Shown one piece after another: positions 18,821 to 54,493 of a stretch of 64,000 nucleotides of DNA. A model generated the notes under the pieces. It saw nothing but the letters and a program-made list of their open reading frames with translations. It was not told where the DNA came from and made no database searches. Location of the stretch: positions 92,756 to 156,755 of the forward strand of contig CAWALA010000001.1 of assembly GCA_963782655.1 (NCBI GenBank). The letters are read 5' to 3'. Positions within the stretch are counted from its first letter, which is position 1. Each line of letters begins with the position of its first letter. Origin of the DNA: an uncultured beta proteobacterium (GTDB taxonomy: Bacteria; Pseudomonadota; Gammaproteobacteria; Burkholderiales; SG8-39). The translations under genes were made by a program, and so were the position numbers.

Positions 18821-18846
18821 GAAAATAGGGTCTGTCCCTATTTTTC
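18821..18846. repeat. palindromic repeat unit (GAAAATAGGG-tctgt-CCCTATTTTTC), terminator-like hairpin; member of the GGGACAGACCCC-core repeat family
   Basis: Perfect 9-bp arms. Related copies at 36834, 37134/37167, 42685, 42785, 52797. Confidence 0.6.
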
Positions 18847-23306: not shown

Positions 23307-24966
<1,660 letters not shown>

Positions 24967-24967
<1 letters not shown>

Positions 24968-27257
24968 CAGCGTGCTTGCAGCGCGCGCCAGACGCGCTCG
25001 GCGGTGAGCGGCATGTCGATCTCCTTCACGCCGAGCGCGTCGATCACGGCGTTGACGATCGCGGGCGTGGCGCCGTGGCAGCCCGCTTCGCCCGCGCCTT
25101 TCGCGCCAAGCGGATTCATCTGCGTGGGCACCGACTCATCGAAGCTTGTCGCCAGGTCCGGGATGTCCGCCGCACGCGGCATGGCGTAGTCCATGAAAGA
25201 GCCCGTGAGGAGTTGCGCCGATTCGTCGTAGACCGACTGCTCGAAGAGCGCCTGCCCGAGCCCTTGCGCGATTCCGCCGTGCACCTGCGATTCCGCGGTG
25301 AGTGGATTGATCACGCGCCCGATGTCATCCACCGCGCAATGGCGTGCTACGCGGACCGTGCCCGTCTCGGGGTCCAGCTCGACTTCGGCCACCTGGCAGC
25401 CGTTCGGCCAGGTCTGGCCTTTCACCGTCTCGGTGTGCTCGCAGACGATGCGCCGCTCCGGCTGCCTGGCCGCGAGCTCGAACAGGCCGATGCCGCGATC
25501 GGTGCCGGCGATGCGAAAGCGTCCCTGGCCGTATTCGAGGTCGCTCGCGGCCACCTCGAGCGCCTGCGCCGCGAGCGGCCGCGCCACTTCGATCAGCGCC
25601 GCCGCGCCGGCGAGCGCCGCGCTGCCTCCGACCTGCAGCCCGCGCGAGCCTCCTGCGCCACCGCCGGTTTTCGGCAGGTCGCTATCGCCTTGCACGACGC
25701 GGATCGCCTGCGGGTCGATGCCGAGCTTCTCGGCAACGAGCTGCGCGTAGGAGGTCCACAGTCCCTGCCCGATCGCCTGGGTGCCGGAGTGCAGCACCAG
25801 AGAGCCATCGGCCGCGGCCGCGACATGCACGGTTTCGTTCAGCTTGGCGCTGCCCGTGATCTCCACGTAGCAGGCAAGTCCGCGTCCGTAGCGCAGGCCC
25901 CGCTTCCCGGCGGCCGCCCGGCGCGCCGCGTACCCATTCCAGTCCGAGGCCGCCTGCGCCCCGCGCAGCATGCGCGCGAAGTCGCCGCAGTCGTAGGTAA
26001 GGCCGGCGGGATTGGCGTAGGGCATGCGCTCGACCGGCACCATGTTCTTCAGCCGCAATTCGATGGCGTCCGCGCCAAGTTCCATCGCCGCGCGCTCCAC
26101 CAGGCGCTCGAGCAGATAGCCCATCTCCGGGCGGCCCGCGCCGCGGTAGGCATCCACTGGCGAAGTGTTGGTGAACATCATCTTCACTTCGTGATCGAGC
26201 ACCGGGATGGCGTACACGCCGGTCGGCGCGCGCGCGCCCGACATCGCCGGCACCGCGGCGCCGAAGCTCGAGATGTAGGCACCGATGTTGGCGAGCGTGC
26301 GGATGCGCAGCGCCGTGAAGCGCTGCGCGTCGTCGATCGCGAGCTCCGCCACGGTGACGTTGTCGCGGCCGTGCACCTCGCAGAGAAAGTGCTCGGAGCG
26401 GTCGGCGAGCCAGCGCAGGGGGCGGCCGAGCTTCTTCGCCGCCCAGGCGAGCGCCGCGTGCTCCGGGTAGGCGTAGCCGCGCGCGCCGAAGCCGCCGCCG
26501 ACGTCCGTACAGACGATGTGCAGCTCGTCTTCCTTGAGATTGAGCGCCTTGGCGAGCTGCGCGCGCACGTTGTGCACGTTCTGCGTAGGGCACCACAGCG
26601 TGGTACGGCCCGACGCGGCGTCGAACTGCGCCGCGAGCGCCCGCGGCTCGAGCGGGTTCGCCACCACGCGCTGGTTGATCACCTTCAGCCGTACGACGTG
26701 CTTCGCCGCCGCGAAGGCCGCCTCGCGCGCCGCCTTGTCGCCCATGTGGTAGTAGGCAGCGACCAGCCCCAGCTTCGCCGCGGCCTCGACGCCCGGCACT
26801 GCCTCGAGCGGCGCCCAGTCGACTTCCACCAGCTCCGCCGCGTCGCGCGCCTGGTTGCGCGTCTCGGCGACCACCATCGCCACTGCGTCGCCGACGAAGC
26901 GCGCTTCGTCGCGCGGTGATCGGCATGCGCGGCGGCGCCACGATGGGCGAGCCGTCCTCGCGCTTGTGCATGCGGGTGAATGGGAATTTCGCCGACGCCG
27001 TCGGCGGCGATGTCCGCGCCCGTGTAGACGGCAAGCACGCCGGGCGCGCCGCGCGCGCCGGAGACGTCGATTCTCGCGATGCGCGCATGCGCATGCGGCG
27101 AGCGAGTGAACGCCACGTGCGCCGCGCCCTCGGGGTGCACGTCGTCGGTGAAGCGCCCCTGGCCCGTGAGCAGGCGCGCGTCCTCGAGCCGGCGCAGCGG
27201 CTTGCCGATCCATTGGCTGGCGCCGGGCTGGCCGGCGGGGAAGGCGGCGTCTGTCAT
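24967..27257 (-). CDS. xanthine dehydrogenase family protein, molybdopterin-binding large subunit (CoxL/aldehyde oxidoreductase type); one frameshift near 26900
   Basis: N-terminus ...IGKPLRRLEDARLLTGQGRFTDD.... Mo-binding motifs GGGFGAR, ...AYRGAGRPE.... No adjacent 2Fe-2S or FAD subunit genes. Confidence 0.8.
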
Positions 27258-32911: not shown

Positions 32912-34253
32912 CCTCCTTTGCCATCCCCGGACCGGGGGTCACCTCGAGCACCAGCCCGTCGATCGCCGCCACGCGCAGCGCCTGCCCGCGCTTGAGCGGC
33001 GCGCTCGTGCGCACGCGCCAGCGCTCGCCGTGCACGCGCGCCCAGCCCTCGCCCTCGATTTCCTCGAGCGCCTCGCCTGGCGCGCCGATGAGTTCTTCGC
33101 GCCCGCTCACCACCGGGCGGCGGCGCGAACGCACCAGCATGCCGAGCACCAGGAACAGGAACGCCGCGCTCGCCGCGGTCACGCCGCCGATCAGCGCGTA
33201 GGGAATCTCGAACTGCGGCACGTCGGTGTCGAGCAGCATCACCGAGCCGACGACGAACGCCGCCAGCCCGCCCACCGCGAGCGCGCCGTGAGAGGTGATC
33301 CAGACTTCGGCCACCATGAAAGCGATGCCCAGCAGCAGCAGCGCGAGGCCCGCGTAGTTCACCGGCAGCAGCTGGAAGGCGTACATCGCGATCAGGATGC
33401 AGATCGCGCCGACCACCCCCGGGAGAATAAGACCCGGGTTGGTGAACTCGAAGATCAGCGCGTAGATGCCCACCAGGATCATCAGATAGGCAACGCTCGG
33501 GTTGGTGATCACGCTCAGCACGCGCGTGCGCCAGTCGGGTTCGATGGCGCTGACCTCGGCGCCGGCGGTGGCGAGGGCGAGCTTCGCGCCCGCCGTCTCG
33601 ACCGTGCGTCCGTCCACTGCCTGCAGCAGCGCGGGCACGCTTTCCGCGACCACGTCGATGACCTTGATTTTCTTTGCCTCGGTGGCCGACAGGCTCACCG
33701 CCTCGCGCACGGCGCGCTCTGCCCAGTTGGCATTGCGCCCGCGTAGCTGCGCCAGGCTGCGGATATACGCGGCGGCGTCGTTGGTGACCTTGCGCATCAT
33801 CGTGTCGCCCAGGGGTGCGGCGCCTTTCTTCGCTTCCTTCCCCGAGGGGTCGGGCTTGCCGCCGTCGGGCGCGCCGCCGATCGCCACCGGCGAAGCGGCG
33901 CCGAGGTTGGTGGCGGGCGCCATCGCCGCAATGTGGCTGGCGTAAAGGATGAAGGTGCCAGCGCTCGCCGCGCGCGCGCCGGAGGGCCCGACCCAGGCGG
34001 CGACCGGCACCTTGGAGGCGAGAATGTCGCGGATGATGTCGCGCATCGAGCTGTCCAGGCCGCCCGGCGTGTCAAGGCGCAGCACGACGAGCGGCGCGCC
34101 CTCCTTCGCCGCGCGCTCGAGGCTGCGGCCGACGAAATCGGCGGTGGCCGGGCCGATGGCGCCCTCGATGGACACGAGCGCAACCGGGGCGGGGGCGGCT
34201 TGCGCCGACGCCAGCCACAATGCCGCGACTAGCAACAGGCGCCGCGCATCCAT
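32908..34253 (-). CDS. NfeD-family membrane-bound serine protease (ClpP-class) with C-terminal OB domain; frameshift at the extreme 3' end
   Basis: Signal peptide. ...[10 protein letters not shown]...AASAGTFI (ClpP-like), TM block, then ...[28 protein letters not shown]. Directly upstream of the stomatin gene with a GTGA overlap. Confidence 0.75.
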
Positions 34254-34308
34254 GGCGAGACTATAAACCCATATTCGTCGCTAGAATCGCGCCTCTCCCT
34301 ACCGATCG

Positions 34309-37300
34309 ATGAAGCCCGAGCATCCCCCGGCCGACGCCATCGTCATTCGCGGCGCGCGCCAGAACAACCTCAAGAACCTGACGCTGTCGCTGCCGGCGAA
34401 CGAGCTGATCGTCGTCACCGGCGTGTCTGGCTCGGGCAAGTCCTCGCTCGTCTTCGACACCCTGTACGCCGAGGGGCAGCGGCGCTACGTCGAGACCTTC
34501 AGCCCCTACGCGCGCCAGTTCCTCGAGCGCATGGACAAGCCGCAGGTGGACGCGATCGAGGGCATCCCGCCGGCGATCGCCATCGACCAGACCAACCCGG
34601 TGCGCACCTCGCGCTCCACGGTCGGCACGATGACCGAGCTGAACGACCACCTGAAGCTGCTCTTCGCGCGCGCGGCGAAGCTGCATTGCCGCAAGTGCGG
34701 CAAGCCGGTGCGGCGCGACACGCCGCGAGTCCATCTATCGAGGCGCTCGCCGCGCAGGCGGACGCGCGCCTGGAGATCACCTTCCCGGTGCCGATCCCGA
34801 AGAACTTCACCGAGAAGGAGGTCGAGGAGCTGCTGCAGCGCCAGGGCTACACGCAGCTGCACTCGCGCTCGAAGACCCTGATCGAGGTGATCCAGGACCG
34901 CGTGCGCCCCGGCACGACCGAGAAGGCGCGCGTGATGGACGCCATCGACTCGGCGCTGCGCTACGGCCAGGGACGCCTCAACGTTTACGCCGAAGATCGG
35001 GGACGATCCCGACTTGTCCGAATCATGGAGAAGCCGAGACCATGAGGTCTGATCCGCACCGCTCTCCGCTTTTCGACCGCTCTGCACTGCGCCGACTGCG
35101 ACATCGCGTACGCGGAGCCCACGCCCGCGGCGTTCTCGTTCAATTCGCCGCTGGGCGCGTGCGAGACCTGCCGCGGCTTCGGGCGCGTGATCGGCGTGGA
35201 CTACGGCCTGGTCATTCCGGACGAATCGAAGACGCTGCGCGAGGGCGCGATCAAGCCCTGGCAGACGCCGAGCTTCAAGGAATGCCAGGGCGACCTGGCG
35301 AAGTACGTGAAGAAGCACGGCGTGCCCATGGACCTGCCCTGGCGCGAGATGAAGGCGGAGCACCGCGCCTGGGTGCTCGAGGGCGACGCGGACTGGGTGA
35401 GCTGGAAGAAGTCCTGGCCCGGCAAGTGGTACGGCGTGGGGCGCTTCTTCAAGTGGCTGGAGAGCAAGGCCTACAAGATGCACATCCGCGTGCTGCTCTC
35501 CAAGTACCGCGCCTACACGGAATGCTCGGCCTGCGGCGGCGCGCGCCTCAAGCCCGACGCGATGCTGTGGAAGATCGAGGGCCGCACGATCCGCGACCTG
35601 ATGCTGATGCCGGTGAGCGAGGTGCAGCGCTTCTTCGCGGCACTGCAGCTGCCCGCGCCGCTGGACGAGGCCACCGACCTGCTGCTCGGCGAGATCCGCA
35701 CGCGCCTTGCGCTACCTGGGCGAGGTGGGCCTGGGCTACCTCACGCTCGACCGCCAGTCGCGCACGCTCTCGGGCGGCGAGGTGCAGCGCATCAACCTCA
35801 CCACGGCGCTCGGCACGTCGCTGGTCAACACGCTGTTCGTGCTGGACGAGCCCTCGATCGGTCTGCACCCGCGCGACATGGGGCGCGTCATCGGCGTGAT
35901 GCGCAGGCTGCGCGACGCCGGCAACTCGCTCGTGGTGGTGGAGCACGATCCGCAGATCATGTTCGCCGCCGACCGCATCCTCGACATGGGCCCGGGCCCG
36001 GCGAGCGCGGCGGCGAGGTGGTGTTCTTCGGCCCGCCGGCCGAACTGCGCAAGGCGCGCACGCTGACCGCCGAGTACCTCTCGGGCCGCAAGCGCGCCGA
36101 AGCGCCGCGCGCGCCGCAGAAGCCGGAGAAGTTCCTGCAAGTGCTGGGCGCCGCCGAGCACAACCTGAAGGACCTCGACGTCTCGATCCCGCTCGAGCGC
36201 CTGGTGTGCGTGACCGGCGTGTCGGGCTCGGGCAAGTCCACGCTGGTGCAGGACGTGCTCTACGCCGCGCTGCTCAAGGCCAAGGGCAAGCCGACCGAGG
36301 CGCCGGGCAGGCACCGCGCGCTGCGCGGCGCGGAAGCGATCGGCGAAGTGGTGATGGTCGACCAGTCGCAGATCGGCAAGACCACGCGCTCCAACCCGGC
36401 GAGCTACGTCGGCGCCTTCGACGCGATCCGCGACCTGTACGCGCAGCGCGCCGGTGTCGAAGGAGCGCAAGTACACCGCCGGCACCTTCAGCTTCAACTC
36501 CGGCAACGGCCGCTGCCCGGCCTGCGGCGGCAACGGCTTCGAGCACGTCGAGATGCAGTTCCTCTCCGACGTGTACCTGCGCTGCCCGGACTGCGACGGC
36601 AAGCGCTACCGCCCCGAAGTTCTGGAAGTGACGGTGCGCGGCAAGAGCATCGCCGAGGCGCTGGAGATGACGGTGTCCGAGGCAGTGGTGTTCTTCAAGG
36701 AAAACGCCGAGGTGCTGGCGCGCCTGCAGCCGCTCGCCGACGTCGGCCTGGACTACCTGCGCCTCGGCCAGCCCGTGCCCACGCTCTCCGGCGGCGAAGC
36801 GCAGCGCCTCAAGCTGGCGGGGCACCTGGCGAGAAAAAATCGGGGACAGACCCCAGTTGTCTCCAAACTGTTCCTGTTCGACGAGCCGACCACCGGCCTG
36901 CACTTCGAGGACATCGCCAAGCTGCTGCGCGCGTTCCGCAAGCTGCTCGCCGCCGGACACTCGCTGGTGGTGATCGAGCACAACCTCGACGTGATCCGCG
37001 CCGCCGACTGGATCCTCGACCTCGGGCCGGAAGGCGGCGACGCCGGCGGCGAGCTGGTCTGCGCAGGAACGCCCGCGAGCCGTGATGCAGCATGCGACGT
37101 CGCACACCGGCAAGGCGCTGCGGGAATACGAGGAAAAAATAGGGACAGACCCCGATTTCGTTGCAGAAAAAGCGGGTCTGTCCCGTATCTTGTCAACTCC
37201 ATCCGGATCCACAACGCGCGCGAGCACAATCTCAAGTCCATCGACGTCGAGATCCCGCGCCAGCGCTTCACCGTGGTCACCGGCGTCTCCGGCTCCGGCA

Positions 37301-39824
37301 AGTCCACCCTCGCCTTCGACATCCTGTTCTCCGAGGGCCAGCGCCGGTACCTCGAGTCGCTCAACGCCTACGCGCGCCAGTTCGTGCAGGTCGCCGCGCG
37401 CCCGGACGTCGACGCCATCTACGGCATCCCGCCCACCGTGGCGATCGAGCAGCGCACCAGCCGCGGCGGCAGGAAGAGCACGGTGGGCACGCTCACCGAG
37501 ATCCACCACTTCCTGCGCCTGCTGTTCGTCAAGCTCGGCACGCAGCACTGCCCCGACTGCGACGTGCCGATCGAGCCGCAGAGCGAGGACGCGATCGCCG
37601 CGCGCCTGATGAAGGAGCACCGCGGCGAGACGGTGGTGATGCTGGCGCCGCTGGTCGTCAACCGCAAGGGCGTCTACACCGATCTCGCCAAGTGGGCCGC
37701 GGCCAAGGGCTACTCGCAGCTGCGAGTGGACGGCAAGCTCCTCCCGCTTCGGCCCTTCCCGCGCCTGGACCGCTTCAAGGAGCACAACATCGAGCTGCCG
37801 GTGGGCTACACCAAGGTCGCACCGCGCAACGAGAAGGAGCTGCGCGAGCGCCTCGCGAAGGCGCTCGAGTTCGGCAAGGGCGTGGTCCACGTGCAGACCG
37901 GCAAGAGCATCCAGGTGTACTCGACCAAGCGCGCCTGCCCCTCGTGCGGCCGCAGCTTCCAGGAACTCGACCCGCGCCTGTTCTCCTACAACTCGCGCCA
38001 CGGCTGGTGCGCGAGCCTGCGTCGGCACCGGCCTGCAGCTGAAGGACGTCGGCTGGGACGCGGAGCGCTCGCGCACCGGCCAGGAAGACCACGTGCTCGA
38101 CTCCTGGATCGAGTGGCTGGAAGTGGACGAGGCCTGCCCCGCGTGCAAGGGCGATCGCCTCAATCCGGAAGCGCTCGCCGTGCGCTGGCGCGGCCGCAAC
38201 ATCGCCGCCTACGGCGGCGAGCCGGTGGAACGCCTCGCCGCGCTGTTCGAGGGCGTGCAAGCTGGAGGGCCGCGAACGCGAGATCGCGCGCGACCTGCTC
38301 GCCGAGCTGCGCAGCCGCCTCGGCTTCCTGAAGGAGGTCGGCCTCTCCTACCTCACGCTCGACCGCTCGGCGCCCACGCTCTCGGGCGGCGAAGCGCAGC
38401 GCATCCGGCTCGCCGCGCAACTGGGCTCCAACCTGCGCGGCGTGTGCTACATCCTCGACGAGCCGACCATCGGCCTGCACCATCGCGACAACCGGATCCT
38501 GCTCGACGTGCTGGAGAAGCTCGAGGCCAAGGGCAACACGCTGGTGGTGGTCGAGCACGACGAGGACACCATCCGCCGCGCGCACCACGTCATCGACCTC
38601 GGCCCCGGCGCCGGCAAGCTCGGCGGCCGCGTCATCGCCGAGGGCACCGCCGAGGAACTGATGCAGTCGCCCGACTCCATCACGGGCAGGTTCCTTGCCA
38701 ACCCGCTGCGCCACCCGCTGCAGCCGCGCCGCCCGGTGAAGAGGGACGCCCCGGCGATCGAGCATCGCCGGCGCCTCGATGCACAACCTGAAGAAGGTGG
38801 ACCTGCGCATCCCGCTCGGCCGCCTGGTCGCGATCACCGGCGTCTCCGGCTCCGGCAAATCGACGCTCGCGCGCGACGTCCTGCATGACAGCCTCAAGGC
38901 CGGCGGCCCGATCGGCTGCAAGGCGATCAAGGGACGCAAGCTCATCGAGCGCGTGCTCGAAGTGGACCAGGCGCCGATCGGCAAGACGCCGCGCTCCTGC
39001 CCCGCGACCTACGTCGGCTTCTGGGATTCGATCCGGCGCCTGTTCGCCGACACGAGCGAGGCGCGCATCCGCGGCTGGAGCGCGAGCCGCTTCTCCTTCA
39101 ACACCAAGGGCGGCCGCTGCGAGAGCTGCGAGGGCCAGGGCATGAAGAAGATCGAGATGAGCTTCCTGCCCGACGTGAAGGTGGCCTGCGAGGCCTGCGG
39201 CGGGCAGCGCTTCAATGCCGAGACGCTCTCGGTGCGCCTGCGCGGCAAGACCGTGGGCGAGGTGCTGGCGATGAGCGTGGACGAGGGCGTGGAGTTCTTC
39301 GCCGCGCATGCGTCGATCCACCACGCGCTGCGCCTGCTGCAGGACGTCGGCCTGGGCTACCTGACGCTCGGCCAGCAGAGCCCGACGCTCTCCGGCGGCG
39401 AGGCACAGCGCATCAAACTGGTTACCGAACTCTCGAAAGTGCGCGGCGTTCTGGGCGCCTTGGGGGTGGGGGTGGGGTTGGCGTTCTACAGATCTCCCGT
39501 CTTCCGCTCGCGGAAGAAGGGAGACCGTTTTCCAAAGCAATCGCACCCTGTACGTGCTCGATGAGCCCACCGTCGGCCTGCACATGGCCGACGTCGAGAA
39601 GCTGATCCGCGTCCTGCACCGCCTGGTCGACGCGGGCAATACCGTCGTGCTCATCGAGCACAACCTCGACGTCATCGCGGAAGCGGACTGGCTCATCGAC
39701 CTCGGCCCCGAGGGCGGCGACGGCGGCGGCAAGCTGGTCTACCAGGGACCTCCCGAGAAGGCTGCGCGCGGGCCATACGGCACAGGCGCTTTCCGCCTTT
39801 CTCGCCGAACGCACCGCCGCGTGA
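34309..39824 (+). CDS. tandem-fused double UvrA-like protein (two complete UvrA ATPase modules, about 1838 codons), uvrA paralogue; at least 8 frameshifts in this assembly
   Basis: Module 1 (34309 to about 37130): [25 protein letters not shown], UvrB-binding-like insert, Zn fingers ([17 protein letters not shown]; CSACGGARL; CPACGGNGF...CPDCDGKRY), LSGGE signatures, C-terminus ...[12 protein letters not shown]. Module 2 (about 37190 to 39824) starts [50 protein letters not shown] with no stop or start codon between the modules, and ends ...[16 protein letters not shown]. Confidence 0.6.
36834..36858. repeat. palindromic repeat unit (AAAAAATCGGGGACAGACCCCAGTT) embedded in-frame in UvrA module 1 between the ABC signature and Walker B
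   Basis: Encodes extra residues ...[13 protein letters not shown]... where canonical UvrA has the short RSTGRT loop. Confidence 0.55.
37134..37191. repeat. two inverted copies of the palindromic repeat (AAAAAATAGGGACAGACCCCGATTT ... AAAAAGCGGGTCTGTCCCGTATCTT) forming the linker between the two UvrA modules
   Basis: GGGACAGACCCC and GGGTCTGTCCC are reverse complements. A roughly 58-bp composite hairpin. Confidence 0.55.
39445..39548. repeat. about 105-bp insertion inside UvrA module 2 (between [17 protein letters not shown] and [12 protein letters not shown]) containing a G4-forming tract and a 14-bp-stem hairpin
   Basis: GGGCGCCTTGGGGGTGGGGGTGGGG (four G-runs) then AGATCTCCCGTCTTCCGC-tcg-CGGAAGAAGGGAGACC. 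Replaces the 6-aa canonical loop with about 36 aa. Confidence 0.5.
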
Positions 39825-39851
39825 GCGCTGCTTCCCCCGCCGCGGCGCCCG

Positions 39852-40720
39852 GTGGCGCTCGCCCTGATGGTCGTCGCGCCCGTGCTGTGGAGCATGGCGG
39901 GCGTGTTGACGCGGCAGATCCAGAGCGCGGGTGCCTTCGAGATGGCGTTCTGGCGCTCGAGCTTCGCCGCCGTCTTCGTCTTCTGCGCGCTGCTCTGGCT
40001 GCAAGGCCGCCGCCCGTGGCAAACGCTGCGCGCCGCGGGCGTGCCCGGACTCGTCTCCGGCGCGATGTGGGCGGTGATGTTCACCGCTGTTCATCGTCGC
40101 GCTCACGCTGACCACCACCGCCAACGTGCTGGTGATGTCCAGCCTGGGGCCGCTGTTCACCGCGCTCCTCGCCGCCTTCTTCCTGCGCGAGCCGATACCG
40201 GCGCGCAGCCTGGCTCGCCATCGTCGCGGCCAGCGTCGGCATGGCGGCGATGTTCGGCGCCGGATTCGAGGCGGGCGAGCCGCGCGCACCTCGCCGGCAT
40301 GGCGCTCGCGCTCACCATTCCCATCGCCGGCGCTGTCAACCTCGTCGTGCTGCGCAAGAGCGCGGCGCACCTCGACCTGATGCCCGCGGTGATGCTCGGC
40401 GCGTTGATCTCCGCTGCGGTGACGCTGCCGTTGGCGCTGCCGTTCCAGGCGAGCGCGCGCGACCTGCTGGTGCTCGCGACGCTCGGCGTGTTCCAGCTCG
40501 GCGTGCCCTGCATGCTGCTGGTGCTCGTCAGCCGCACGCTTCACCGCGCCCGAGATCGCGCTGCTCGCGCTGCTGGAGGTGGTGCTCGGTCCGCTGTGGG
40601 CCTGGCTCGGCGCGGGCGAAGCGCCCGGCACCGCGACGCTCGCCGGCGGCGCCATCGTGCTCGCTGCGCTCGCGGGCAACGAGCTTGCCGCGCTCGCCTC
40701 GCGCCGCCGCGCGGCGTAAT
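39852..40720 (+). CDS. DMT-superfamily (EamA-like) transporter; about 3 frameshifts
   Basis: [23 protein letters not shown]... and later EamA-like segments in ORFs 40126-40380 and 39852-40754, ending ...[10 protein letters not shown]. Confidence 0.5.
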
Positions 40721-41460: not shown

Positions 41461-42780
<1,320 letters not shown>

Positions 42781-42784
42781 GCGC

Positions 42785-42807
42785 GAATCGGGGTCTGACC
42801 CCGATTT
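42785..42807. repeat. palindromic repeat variant (GAATCGGGGTCTGACCCCGATTT) immediately after the helicase stop; terminator-like hairpin
   Basis: 8-bp perfect arms AATCGGGG/CCCCGATT around TCTGA. Confidence 0.55.
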
Positions 42808-42870
42808 GCTACGTCGTCACCCGCGCGCGCACCGGGACCCCGCGGTTGCGGGTGACTGGGCTGTCCGGCG

Positions 42871-43470
42871 CTAGTGGAACTTCGCCGGAGTGGAGAACGG
42901 CTTGCTCGCGTCCACGACGAACATGACCAGCGCATTGAGGTCGGTCGTGCCGCTGCTGAAAACTTCCATCGGCGTGTCGGCCCCGCGCCCGTTCATGGTT
43001 TTGCCGGGCTCGACATGACTCACGCCTCCCGGGGTCTTCTGGCCAAGGCGTCCGGTGAGCACGTAGAAGGCCTCTGAGCCCGGATGCGTGTGCACCGGGG
43101 TCTTCGCGCCGGGCGCTCCGCCCGTATGGTTGACGCGCAGCAGATACTCGGACGCCGCGATCGCGGGAACCGGCCCGATCTCGGCGATCGTGGTGCCTCC
43201 GGCCGTCGAGCCCCCCTTTGCACCGAGCGTGAAGAGCCAGGCTTTCCCGGCAACCTCGGCCGCGAGTGACGTCGGGCCAGTGGCAGCCTGCGCCTCGGCA
43301 AGGGTGGGGTAAGTCTCGACCAGCCAGTACAGCTCTCCAGCCGGCAGCTGCTTCAGCTTCTTCTGCGCCACCGGCTTGATGAAGAATTGGGGCTGTGCGA
43401 GGGCGGCCGGCTGCCACGCGAGGGCCGCAGCCAGCAAGGCCGCGGCCATCCAGATCGGAACCTGCTTCAT
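42871..43470 (-). CDS. secreted cupin-domain protein
   Basis: ATG at 43470 preceded by a GGAGA Shine-Dalgarno sequence. Signal peptide MKQVPIWMAAALLAAALA. ...HTHPGSEAFYVLTG (cupin motif 1). Confidence 0.6.
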   Translation of the reverse strand: MKQVPIWMAAALLAAALAWQPAALAQPQFFIKPVAQKKLKQLPAGELYWLVETYPTLAEAQAATGPTSLAAEVAGKAWLFTLGAKGGSTAGGTTIAEIGPVPAIAASEYLLRVNHTGGAPGAKTPVHTHPGSEAFYVLTGRLGQKTPGGVSHVEPGKTMNGRGADTPMEVFSSGTTDLNALVMFVVDASKPFSTPAKFH

Positions 43471-43612
43471 TGCGGTATCTCCTTTAATGGGAGGGGGTGG
43501 AAATCCGCGGCATAGACGGCGCTTTTTCCTTGCGCACCTGGCTCGAGAGCTACCCGATGAGCAGCCCGCAGTACCTCGAAAGGTTGCAGAGTCTGCTCGC
43601 GAGGGCGGGGCT

Positions 43613-45001: not shown

Positions 45002-47508
45002 ATGCGCGAGCCCACACCCAGGACGATCCACCTCAAGGACTACACCCCGCCCGCGTTTCTCGTCACGCACGTCGAGCTCGACGTGGACATCCGCCAGGAC
45101 GACGCCCTGGTGCGCGCCAAGCTGCAGGTGAAGCGCAATGCCGGTCCGGGTCCGCTGGTGCTGGAGGGCGACGAGCTGGAGCTGGTCTCCGTGTTCGTCA
45201 ACGGCCAGCCCGCGGCGCACAGCGTCGCGCCCGACCGGCTCACCGTTCCCGAAGTGCCCGACGCCTTCATGCTCGAGACCGTGACGCGCATCGTGCCGCA
45301 GAAGAACACCAAGCTCGAGGGCCTCTACGCGACGCAGCACGGCTTCGTCACGCAGTGCGAGGCCGAAGGCTTTCGCCGCATCACCTGGTTCGTGGACCGC
45401 CCGGACAACATGGCGCGCTACGTGGTCACCGTGCACGCCGACAAGGCGAAATTTCCCGGTGCTGCTCTCCAACGGCAACCTGGTCGCCGCGGGCGCCGAG
45501 GCCGGCGGCCGTCACTGGGCGAGGTTCGACGATCCGTTTCCCAAGCCCTCCTACCTCTTCGCGCTGGTCGCGGCGAACCTGGAACTGCTCGAGGATTCCT
45601 TCACCACCCGCTCCGGCAAGAAGGCGAAGCTCGGCGTCTACGTCGAGCCGGGCAAGCTCGACCAGGCCGGCTGGGCGATGGATTGCCTCAAGCGCGCGAT
45701 GCAGTGGGACGAGGAGCGCTTCGGCCTGGAGCTCGACCTCGACCAGTACAAGATCGTCGCGGTCGGCGACTTCAATTCCGGCGCGATGGAGAACAAGGGC
45801 CTCAACATCTTCAACACCAAGTACGTCCTCGCGCGCCCCGACACCGCCACCGACGCCGACTACCAGGCCATCGACTCGGTGGTGGCGCACGAGTACTTCC
45901 ACAACTGGACCGGCGACCGCGTCACCTGCCGCGACTGGTTCCAGCTCTCGCTGAAGGAGGGCCTCACGGTGTTCCGCGACCAGGAGTACAGCGCGGACCT
46001 GTACTCGCGCGCGGTCGAGCGCATCCAGAACGTGCGCATGCTGCGCGCCGGGCAGTTCCCCGAGGACGCCGGGCCGATGGCGCACCCGGTGCGGCCGCAG
46101 TCCTACATGGAGATCCGCAACTTCTACACCATGACGGTGTACGAGAAGGGCGCGGAGGTGGTGCGCATGCAGCACACGCTGCTCGGCGAGGAGAAGTTCC
46201 AGGCCGGCATGCGCCTGTACTTCGAGCGCCACGACGGCCAGGCGGTGACCTGCGACGATTTCGTGCAGGCGATGCAGGACGCGAGCGGCGTGGACCTGGG
46301 CCAGTTCCGGCGCTGGTACGACGTCGCCGGCACGCCGGTGCTCGACTGCTCGGGCGAGCACCGCGACGGCACGTTCACGCTGCGCGTGAAGCAGTCCATG
46401 AATCCGCCGTTCCACATCCCGCTGGCGGTGAAGATCGGGGCGCAAGAGCAAGTGCTGTCGCTCAGGCAGGCAGCAGGAGACCTTCTGCGTTCAAGGTGGC
46501 AGCAGAAGCCCGTGCCGTCCCTGCTGCGCGGCTTCTCGGCGCCGGTGATCCTCAACTACCCGTACACCGAAGGCGATCTGCTGCACCTGCTGGCGCACGA
46601 CGACGACGCCGTTCAACCGCTGGGAGGCGGCGCAGCGGCTCGCCGCCGAGGTCATCCTCGGCAGGCGCGGCGCGCCCTCGCCCGCGTTCCTCGGGCGGCG
46701 CAGCGCGTGCTCGACGACCCGGATCCCGCCTTCGCCGCCGAGGCGCTCGACGCTGCCCTCGGAAACCTTCCTCGCCGAGCAGCTCGAGGTGGTGGATCCC
46801 GATGCGCTGCACGCGTCGCGCAATGCGCTGCGAAGGCGATCGCGCCGGCGCTCAAGGACGCGTTGCGCGCGAAGTACCTGGACCTCAGGATCGACGGGGC
46901 CGTATTCCCCCGATGCCGGTGCAGGTCGGGCGGCGCACGCTGCGCAACCTGTGCCTGGGCTACCTCGCCGAGCTCGGCATGACGCGCGCTCGCCTACGAG
47001 CAGTTCAGGGCTGCGGACAACATGACCGACGCGATGGCGGCGCTCTCCGCGCTCGCCAACGCGCGACTGCCCGGAGCGCCAGCCGGCGCTGGAGGCGTTC
47101 TACGCGAAGTGGCAGGACGAGCCGCTGGTGGTGGACAAGTGGCTCGCGGTGCAGGCCGGCTCGCGGCTGCCCGGCACGCTGGCGCGCGTGCGCGAGCTGC
47201 TCGCGCATCCCGCCTTCGACCTCAAGGTGCCGAACAAGGTGTACGCGCTCATCCGCAGCCTTCAGCGCCAACCACGTGCGCTTCCATGCCGCCGACGGCG
47301 GAGGCTATGCGTTCCTCGCCGACCGCGTGATCGAGCTGAACGGGCTCAACCCGCAGGTGGCGGCGCGCATGGCGCGCGGCTTCGACCGCTGGAAGAGGTT
47401 CGACGCCAGCCGCCAGGCGAAGGCGCGCGCGGCGCTCGAGCGCATCCGCGACGCCCAGGACCTTTCGCGCGACGTGGCCGAGATCGTCGGCAAATCCCTG
47501 GGCTGAAC
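45002..47508 (+). CDS. pepN: aminopeptidase N (M1 family); at least 4 frameshifts
   Basis: ...[12 protein letters not shown]...[36 protein letters not shown] (GAMEN plus HEXXH-18-E). Confidence 0.85.
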
Positions 47509-48847: not shown

Positions 48848-49609
48848 TTGCCCTTGAGCCCGGCGTACAAGCTGGCATTGTGGGCGCTCTTGAACTCTCC
48901 TGACATCACCTCGCGGCTGGCCACCACCGGCCAGCTCCTCGTTCGCTCGGGGATCGAAATCGGCCGACTCCTGGGCTCGATGCGCGAGGACGGCGATGCC
49001 GTGACCGGAAATCTCCCGTCGCAGATGCTGTTCCTCTCGAAGCTGCTCTACGTAGAGCCGGTGAGCGGATACATGCTGCTCGCACTACTCCGATCACAAG
49101 GCGGCCAACACGGCGGCGCTGGCGGTGCGCTCGCTCACGCTGCGCTGCAACCATCGCGGCGCGCAGTTCGCTTTCGCCGGCGACAAGCCGCGGCAAACGG
49201 CCTACGCAGGCCAACCCTGCATCCAATGCGGGTTGCCTACGGCGATACTGGGGATGCAGCAGCGCCGCGGCCTCGCCCGCGTCCAGGTGCCGGCGCAGGC
49301 GCCGGTGCGCTGCGACCTGCGCATGGGCCTGCAGGCCTTCGCGTCCAGGGTGGTCGACGTCAGCCTCGATGGCATCGGCGCGCTGATCATCCGACCCTAC
49401 GATCCCCCTGTGCGCCGGCACGCTGCTGGAGCACGCGCGCATCTGGCATCCTCAGGTCGAGCCCTTCCATGTCGACCTCGAAGTGCGCCACGTCACCCGC
49501 GCCACCCTGGCCAACGGCCAGCGGGTCAGCCGCATCGGCTGCAAGGTGGTCGGCTCGCGCGAGGTCCTGGAAGAACTCATTCGCCTGTTCATCATCGATC
49601 TGGCCTGAC
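48848..49609 (+). CDS. PilZ-domain protein with YcgR-like N-terminal domain (putative c-di-GMP effector); 2 frameshifts
   Basis: N-terminus ...ITSRLATTGQLLVRSGIEIGRLLG.... PilZ motifs ...RRGLARVQVPA... and D.S..G. (VVDVSLDGIGALI). Confidence 0.5.
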
Positions 49610-53215: not shown

Positions 53216-53235
53216 GTGCAGGCTATGATAGCCGC

Positions 53236-54493
53236 ATGACCCAGCGTGTCGTGATTCTCGGCTGTGGCTTCGGCGGGCTGTTCGCGGCGCGCGCACTGCG
53301 CAACGCACCCGTCGAGATCACGGTGCTCGACCGCACCAACCACCACCTGTTCCAGCCGCTCCTCTACCAGGTGGCCACCGCCGGGCCTCGCCGCGCCGGC
53401 GGTCGCCGAGCCGATCCGGCGCATCCTCGCCGGCCAGAAGAACACGACCGTGCTGCTACGGCGAAGCGCAGCGCGTGGACCTCGCGGCGACGCAAGGTCG
53501 TCCTGGAGGACGGCGAAGCGCTCGCCTACGACCGGCTGATCCTCGCCACCGGCGCGCGCGACAGCTACTTCGGCCACGACGACTGGGCGCGGCACGCGCC
53601 CGGGCTGAAGACGCTGGAAGACGCGTTCGACATCCGCCGCCGCGTGCTTCTCGCCTTCGAGCACGCCGAGCGCGAAACGGACCCCGCGAAGCGCGCCGCC
53701 TGGCTCACCTTCGTCGTGATCGGCGCGGGCGCCACCGGCGTGGAGATGGCGGGCATGCTCGCCGAGATCGCGCGCCACACGCTGAAAGGGGAGTTCCGCC
53801 GCTTCGATCCGCGCAACGCGCGCGTGGTGCTGGTGGAGGCCACCGACCGCGTGCTGCCGCCCTACACGCCGGACCTCTCCGAGAAAGCCCGCCGGCAGCT
53901 CGAGCGCATCGGCGTCACGGTGTGGCTCGGACGCCGCGTCACCGGCATCGACGAGCGCGGCGTGCAGCTCGGCGGCGAGCGGCTGGAAGCGAGCACGGTG
54001 ATCTGGTGCGCCGGCGTGGCGGGATCGCCGCATCGGGGCCACTCTCGGCGTGCCGCTCGACCGCGCCGGGCGCGTCATCGTGGAGCCGGACCTCTCAGTG
54101 CCCGGTCATCCGGAAGTCCAGGTGGTGGGCGATCTCGCGCTGCTGCCCTCGCACCAGCCGCCCGTGCCGGGCGTGGCGCCCGCCGCCAAGCAGATGGGGC
54201 GCCACGCCGCGCGCAACATCCTCGCCGCCCTTGCCGGCAAGCCGGCGCGCCCGTTCCGCTACCGGGATTACGGCCAGCTCGCCACCATCGGCAGGAGTGC
54301 CGCGGTGGCGATGTTCGGGAGCGTGCACATCTGGGGCTGGCTCGCCTGGGTGGCCTGGCTCACCGCGCACATCTACTTCCTGATCGGATTCAGGAACCGC
54401 CTGGTGGTGCTGATCGACTGGGCGTGGGCCTACTGGACCTTCGAGCGCTCGGCGCGCATCGTCATCGGCACGGGCGGGCGGCCGGAGAGCTGA
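53236..54493 (+). CDS. ndh: type II NADH:quinone oxidoreductase (NDH-2); about 3 frameshifts
   Basis: VVILGCGFGGLFAAR (first FAD/NAD GxGxxG) ...VVIGAGATGVEMAG (second) ...C-terminal membrane-anchoring amphipathic region. Confidence 0.8.

Follow-up and report, generated by a model that had tools for sequence, protein, structure and literature searches.

A double-length uvrA-like gene was analyzed on a 64-kb stretch of DNA (64,000 nucleotides; the window) from contig CAWALA010000001.1 of an uncultured beta proteobacterium. The source genome has a G+C content of 69% and is Burkholderiales-like. The gene is located on the + strand and encodes two UvrA-like modules head to tail, each with two ATP-binding cassette (ABC) halves. 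Walker A sites were found at 34420, 36216, 37282 and 38839. The window protein also has LSGGE signatures, Walker B motifs and H-loops, four of each, and the catalytic motifs were all intact. Three Zn modules were present in module 1 (CRKC/CADC, CETC/CSAC and CPAC/CPDC) and three in module 2 (CPDC/CPSC, CASC/CPAC and CESC/CEAC). In the C-terminal 565 aa the two modules were 44% identical, compared with 32% in the N-terminal 300 aa. The gene comprises the following features, in which NBD stands for nucleotide-binding domain and REP for repetitive extragenic palindromic:

34309-39824, + strand: whole double-length uvrA-like gene, from ATG 34309 to TGA 39822-39824, 1835 codons after correction
34309-37129, + strand: module 1, aa 1-940 (TIGR00630, alignment to 2r6f, PF17755, PF17760)
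34699-35096, + strand: region at the UvrB-binding position of module 1, aa 131-262 (partial PF17760, profile matches), holding the sole in-frame stop
35043-35045, + strand: in-frame TGA, codon 245, inside about 22 lineage-specific extra codons of a variable loop
35199-35519, + strand: insertion (DNA-binding) domain of module 1, aa 297-403 (PF17755, E 3.2e-13)
36843-36853, + strand: REP-like motif GGGACAGACCC in the signature-Walker B loop of module 1 NBD-II, encoding ..KNRGQTPVV..
37130-37200, + strand: interdomain linker, 24 aa, without stop or start codon
37142-37184, + strand: inverted REP-like pair with a strong hairpin, arms 37142-37152 and 37174-37184
37201-39821, + strand: module 2, aa 964-1835 (TIGR00630 in three stretches, full PF17760, no PF17755)
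37564-37932, + strand: UvrB-binding domain of module 2, aa 1085-1207 (PF17760), with the invariant motif RKG.YTDLA.WA...LRVDG
about 39442-39538, + strand: extra loop of about 32 codons in module 2 NBD-II, between signature and Walker B, with G5/G5/G4 runs and one frameshift inside

An initial annotation, made from the letters of the window, had described two head-to-tail UvrA-type modules, each with two ABC halves, Zn fingers and LSGGE signatures, and these motifs were all recovered. The canonical UvrA C-terminus with which it closed module 1 was found at 37082-37129, and the canonical N-terminus with which it opened module 2 begins at 37201. It had also stated that no stop and no plausible start codon separates the modules; the stretch between them contained no stop and no in-frame ATG, GTG or TTG. 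Its single ORF (open reading frame) of about 1838 codons did not stand, as the raw sequence breaks 12 times, carries a TGA besides, and yields 1835 codons only after editing.

Three-frame translation of 34200-40200 indicated that the raw sequence is not one ORF and contains 12 single-base frameshifts and one in-frame TGA. Inspection of the junctions placed the frame switches near 34726, 34739, 35712, 36000, 36447, 37081, 37167, 38017, 38258, 38763, about 39478 and 39773. A plot of third-codon-position G+C (GC3) and a simple coding-frame hidden Markov model gave changes near 34730, 35710, 36000, 36447, 37075 and 37195, and further changes near 38017, 38258, 38763, 39500 and 39770. An identical frame path across the gene was obtained by tblastn with the nearest complete relative (L002) as query. 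Twelve one-base edits joined the gene into a single frame of 1835 codons, in which the TGA at 35043-35045 was still left. Ten of these edits were deletions of a base, nine of them an extra C, and the other two were additions, in the G run at 36000 and the A run at 37167. GC3 was near 0.95 (range about 0.93-1.0) in all coding segments, and the amino-acid identity to relatives was 76-90% in each segment.

Frame changes were also found in the neighboring genes when ORFs from related loci were compared with the window. There were three in the DEAD-box helicase gene (41476-42700), at least three in PepN (45002-47500), two in the gene at 48890-49602 and one each in the genes at 53224-54319 and 23313-24973. 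The NfeD, SPFH, MlaC and CoA-transferase genes had no frame breaks. At eight of these neighbor sites the lesion was likewise a single extra C or G, mainly outside homopolymers, such as GTG[C]GAG, CCG[C]ATC and ATC[G]AAG. The frameshift rate was about 1 per kb in the neighbors versus 2.2 per kb in the uvrA-like gene. Since the neighboring genes are frameshifted alike, chiefly by an extra C, the breaks are attributable to assembly errors, not to decay of the uvrA-like gene. The uncorrected 625-aa ORF at 36454-38331 is already present in a public protein collection as P0002, from the NCBI/ENA contig, and the errors therefore belong to the deposited record. The single-base insertions seem to reflect a systematic error of assembly or polishing in the deposited contig. 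Because the G+C content is high, long open frames in this contig are no proof of intact genes, and any ORF-based reading of it requires frameshift-aware methods. Inserted bases occur across the contig, for example at 41830, 41980, 42395, 45455, 46610, 49085, 49400 and 54030; nearly all are a C and a few a G, and most lie outside homopolymers.

A genome scan using the junction region as query, with one genome per species, detected at least 589 loci, of which 80 were kept (the L-numbers refer to these loci). The whole junction query was spanned by 79 of the 80. Complete genes numbered 53, each with a stop-free frame of about 1780-2240 codons in which Walker A, LSGGE, Walker B and H-loop motifs occur four times each. 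These genes came from isolates of Bordetella, Achromobacter and Roseateles, among others, and from many metagenome-assembled genomes (MAGs) based on Illumina reads. In a plasmid collection, 230 records covered the junction, 134 of them Ralstonia megaplasmids. The gene of Ralstonia solanacearum CFBP 8695 was annotated by PGAP as a single coding sequence (CDS) of 5838 nt, encoding 1945 aa, with the name "uvrA, excinuclease ABC subunit UvrA". Residues 6-1939 of the Ralstonia protein QHB61293.1 (1945 aa) aligned with residues 11-1834 of the corrected window protein at 60% identity (2241 bits). A single ORF of up to 1982 aa was located on the second replicon of Cupriavidus metallidurans CH34. In an exhaustive HMMER search with the junction ORF as query, nearly all of the best 150 representatives at 50% identity had lengths of 1550-2340 aa and carried the junction near residue 700-780.

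As these single-frame relatives encode the same four motif sets, the fusion of two UvrA modules in one gene is, on comparative evidence, genuine and common. The initial annotation had left open whether it is a single polypeptide; the 53 single-frame relatives, the 1945-aa Ralstonia CDS and the 150 best representatives all support this. Its remark that genes of this kind are annotated in proteobacteria, and uncharacterised, also agreed with our results, since they are annotated in R. solanacearum and CH34 and no functional study was found. The gene belongs to a large family that is widely annotated as 'excinuclease ABC subunit UvrA' and functionally unstudied. Across the family, the NBD regions of both modules had a mean pairwise identity of 0.69-0.85, compared with 0.14 for the linker, and the comparison showed both modules to be equally conserved and under equal purifying selection.

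Some loci and proteins related to the family had other sizes. Three loci (L081, L082 and L083) appeared as split genes, with products of about 800-1000 aa and 854-882 aa, and were rejected as artefacts caused by frameshifts in long-read contigs. In L081 the same frame continues the N-terminus of module 2 to a point before the called start, which shows that this split is a frameshift artefact. L084, another candidate for a split version, was a fragment at a contig end. Among the double-length representatives, a possible second size class of about 1560-1680 aa was observed, whose match to the junction query often ended near residue 365 and which might represent another domain-loss variant of tandem UvrA. 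Isolates of Geobacter sulfurreducens, Geobacter sp. DSM 9736 and Saccharospirillum impatiens encoded stand-alone proteins of about 870 aa (P0112, P0105 and P0113). These were 68-72% identical to the part of module 2 covered by the junction query and had their own N-terminal Met. Two MAGs, one of Geobacter (L080) and one of Desulfuromonadales (L037), had the fused form.

Both modules were UvrA-like and differed in their accessory domains. With TIGR00630 (cut-off 729.8), module 1 obtained 992.5 bits in one stretch (11-924) and module 2 obtained 1022.4 bits in three stretches. With the equivalog NF001503 the scores were 1014.6 and 1041.3 bits, both under the cut-off of 1147. Residues 6-939 of module 1 aligned to 19-955 of PDB 2r6f, and module 1 is thus collinear with a full-length class I UvrA. 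The insertion domain PF17755 was detected in module 1 (50.4 bits, E 3.2e-13), where the region from FSYN to the next CxxC spans 129 aa. No PF17755 match was obtained in module 2, which has an FSYN-to-CxxC stub of 50 aa, and PDB class I chains matched module 2 at 847 bits but left their residues of about 290-412 unaligned. The insertion-domain region of module 1 measured 123-129 aa in all 53 complete relatives, and the asymmetry, with this domain in module 1 and not in module 2, was kept in every one of them. Of the two modules that the initial annotation had called complete, module 1 is collinear with class I UvrA over its whole length, and module 2, which has no insertion domain, is not a complete UvrA.

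The domain at the UvrB-binding position was asymmetric in another way. In module 2, PF17760 matched over its full length with 92.2 bits. In module 1, only a partial match of 25.6 bits was obtained and the motif RKG.Y.DL...RVDG was missing. A profile of this module 1 region, built from 18 family members, matched M. tuberculosis UvrA at 142-280 (E 1.4e-16) and the isolated domain 3fpn_A (E 1.2e-7), and hhalign of this profile against the module 2 domain gave 96% probability. Invariant columns at this position numbered 11 in module 1 versus 32 in module 2. Judging from these profile comparisons, the module 1 domain is homologous to the UvrB-binding domain but diverged. Of the UvrB-binding domain in each module, as considered in the initial annotation, a canonical form was found in module 2 and a diverged homologous domain in module 1.

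Alignment to the UvrA classes gave, for both modules, 816-847 bits with class I structures, 573-605 bits with D. radiodurans UvrA2 (2vf7) and 445-500 bits with Ecm16 (7sh1). By alignment score, both modules resemble class I UvrA more than class II. Each module also retains the Cys pairs, with a 125-129-aa domain between them, and therefore does not have the defining feature of class II. Class I proteins (E. coli, G. stearothermophilus 2r6f, T. maritima 3pih and M. tuberculosis 3zqj) share with each window module the two-NBD core, three Zn modules and a domain at the UvrB position. Unlike the class I homodimer, the window protein has two modules in a single chain, no insertion domain in module 2 and a diverged UvrB-type domain in module 1. 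The class II proteins (D. radiodurans UvrA2 2vf7, DrrC and Ecm16 7sh1) are also extra paralogues with intact ATPase sites. Class IIa UvrA has neither the first Zn finger nor the UvrB-binding domain (PMC9328131); in both window modules this Zn finger is kept and the UvrB-binding position is occupied by a domain.

Among double-length proteins, the uvrA product of the Ralstonia megaplasmid (QHB61293.1) was collinear with the window protein from end to end and likewise had Walker A and LSGGE motifs, four of each. Like the window protein, the 53 complete relatives have an asymmetric domain layout, a linker without conservation and NBD-II loops of variable length. Compared with the Ralstonia/CH34 type, the window copy is shorter (1835 aa), has REP-like hairpins in the linker and carries one of the longest module 2 loops in the family. 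The Ralstonia and CH34 relatives are known from annotation alone. A UvrA of about 1800 aa is also represented by the Chlamydia-type NF001885 / PRK00635, a model of 1809 positions that describes the tandem UvrA of Chlamydiae. The window modules obtained 598.2 and 567.7 bits with NF001885, versus a cut-off of 3054, and both matched the same first half of the model. These low scores, with both modules on the first half, point to independent fusions or a very distant relationship between the two types.

The linker was 24 aa long in the window and 21-65 aa across the family. It contains a perfect 11-nt inverted repeat, with GGGACAGACCC at 37142-37152 and GGGTCTGTCCC at 37174-37184, and its hairpin folded at -29 kcal/mol (z = -5.1), in agreement with the palindromic repeat pair from which the initial annotation had built the linker. 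The motif GGGWCWGWCCC with AAAAT...ATTTT-type flanks occurred in seven window copies (13650, 18828, 36843, 37142, 37174, 42692 and 42791) versus 0.15 expected. The copies at 18828, 42692 and 42791 form hairpins outside genes, and the REP-like hairpins had z scores of -2.3 to -5.8. Palindromic repeat elements inserted in frame into genes include the Rickettsia palindromic elements and REP elements. The window motif is likewise short, hairpin-forming and dispersed, and lies in frame in tolerant loops and in the linker; it differs from the known palindromic elements in being very short, with an 11-nt core, and in having AT-rich flanks. By its repeat structure, the palindromic pair of the linker is a REP-like element, in frame in a tolerant tether. 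The motif was also found in the linkers of the same gene in L001 (943/970), L002 (4881/4917), L006 (10688/10733) and L011 (10673), in differing arrangements, and was absent from those of L003-L005, L007 and L008. The differing arrangements suggest repeated insertion or turnover of the REP-like motif in a tolerant linker.

The loops between signature and Walker B were also compared across the family. This loop was fixed at 24 aa in both NBD-I and varied in NBD-II, where its length was 26-61 aa for module 1 and 24-73 aa for module 2. In the window, the NBD-II loop of module 2 measured 55 aa, which is long yet inside the family range. The large insertion noted initially at 39445-39548 was confirmed as about 32 extra codons, and it is an ordinary length variant of a family-variable loop. 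The fold of this extra loop was unremarkable (z = -1.2), and the hairpins at the module 2 insertion, at 35020-35070 and at 36826-36875 folded no better than shuffled sequence.

According to the CH34 genome paper, this strain has uvrA1 (Rmet_0313) on CHR1 and uvrA2 (Rmet_4549) on CHR2. The double-length CH34 ORF is very probably uvrA2 Rmet_4549, the two being linked by the shared replicon rather than by coordinates. Ralstonia annotation labels the megaplasmid gene uvrA_2. The window gene is probably an extra UvrA paralogue as well. No description of the family was found in a literature search on duplicated, fused or double UvrA and on UvrA classes. A class of tandemly duplicated UvrA was reportedly named by Goosen and Moolenaar in 2008 and by Timmins in 2009.

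Taken together, the best explanation, to which we give a probability of roughly 60% as a whole, is one gene for a double-length UvrA paralogue with the mode of action proposed below, its frame being broken by single-base errors from an assembly of low accuracy. All four ATPase sites were intact in the 53 complete relatives, the window protein has six Zn modules, and the two modules have complementary domain losses. Canonical UvrA acts as a homodimer, and the two tethered modules are therefore proposed to pair within one chain, which would give a hard-wired asymmetric 'dimer'. This dimer might clamp DNA and use ATP to test for distortion, and UvrB would be recruited through module 2 only. The protein could then serve as an auxiliary damage sensor beside the ordinary UvrA. 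In the furthest form of this proposal, which we hold to be possible but not the likelier outcome, the whole family would be a natural single-chain asymmetric UvrA dimer that has a single insertion domain, a single canonical domain for docking UvrB and four live ATPase sites, sensing damage and loading a single UvrB. Such a mode is uncharacterised in bacteria, and the tether and surface loops would have repeatedly gained in-frame REP-like hairpins. The family is large and is present in the model bacteria R. solanacearum, C. metallidurans, Bordetella and Achromobacter. If the modules do pair within the chain, it would offer a ready-made asymmetric UvrA dimer. This could help to assign the roles of protomers and ATPase sites in the hand-off of the lesion to UvrB, which are hard to dissect in a symmetric homodimer.

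Some observations weigh against this explanation. The TGA at 35043 is not accounted for by a frameshift, and the window copy could therefore be inactive. The stand-alone proteins similar to module 2 indicate that this module may also work outside the fusion. A canonical uvrA, uvrB and a LexA box (CTGT-N8-ACAG) were not found in the 64-kb window, and the literature search returned no functional study of, or experiment on, any family member.

Alternatively, the protein might act independently of UvrB in the manner of the class II proteins DrrC, Ecm16 and D. radiodurans UvrA2, using ATP to dislodge DNA-bound toxins or intercalators. The gene is probably an extra paralogue, and the known extra paralogues behave in this way (PMC9328131). 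The loss of the canonical motif from the UvrB-binding-type domain of module 1 and the EamA-type transporter gene directly downstream would fit as well. However, the canonical UvrB-binding domain of module 2 is strongly conserved (PF17760 92 bits, 32 invariant columns), the modules match class I structures at 816-847 bits, well above 2vf7 (573-605) and 7sh1 (445-500), and no biosynthetic cluster is located nearby. We therefore regard UvrB-independent action as unlikely, though it is the most plausible of the alternatives.

It is rather improbable that the gene encodes the sole UvrA of its organism and functions in ordinary nucleotide excision repair, as is assumed for the double-length UvrA of Chlamydia. 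The CH34 genome paper assigns uvrA2 to the second replicon, where the double-length gene is located, and uvrA1 to the chromosome, and the Ralstonia gene is on a megaplasmid and labeled uvrA_2. In favor of a sole UvrA, both modules exceeded the TIGR00630 cut-off and no second uvrA occurs within the 64 kb; the modules nevertheless fell below the NF001503 cut-off and are not of the Chlamydia-type NF001885 (598 and 568 bits versus 3054).

A true pseudogene in the source organism, with the 12 frameshifts and the TGA as real mutations, is more improbable still. It would account for the 12 frame changes and the one in-frame stop of the raw sequence, for a frameshift density of 2.2 per kb, about twice the neighbor estimate, and for the location of the TGA in a lineage-specific insertion. 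The same extra C or G frameshifts were nonetheless found in at least six other genes of the window, no sign of decay was seen in GC3 (0.93-1.0) or in the identity per segment (76-90%), and none of the catalytic motifs is damaged. It is hardly credible that two separate genes lie side by side here, or that two loci were collapsed by misassembly, as the initial annotation had allowed for: callers do split such genes in long-read assemblies (L081, L082 and L083) and the window's own ORF was called as the 625-aa piece P0002, but the L081 split is a frameshift artefact with the module 2 frame open upstream of the called start, the window linker has neither stop nor start codon, and the same collinear single ORF occurs in independent Illumina MAGs, in isolates and in the complete Ralstonia and Cupriavidus replicons.

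In the window, the double-length UvrA paralogue gene is flanked upstream by divergent NfeD and SPFH genes and downstream by the EamA transporter gene (directly), MlaC and the DEAD-box helicase gene. No repair operon and no biosynthetic cluster were found among these window neighbors. In the gene region there was no sigma-70 consensus, and no terminator-like sites were found above chance. Rfam gave no family matches in 33800-40200. A role as a defence system was considered and rejected: PADLOC gave weak generic ABC-type matches to mads_3/mads_8 (28-89 bits) for the NBD-II pieces at 38764-39477 and 36448-37080, which are probably generic UvrA or ABC similarity. The DEAD-box helicase gene (41476-43600) matched its 543-aa relatives only to about residue 420. 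After this match there are two REP-like hairpins (42692 and 42791) and about 900 nt that score as non-coding, and the helicase gene may be truncated or rearranged.

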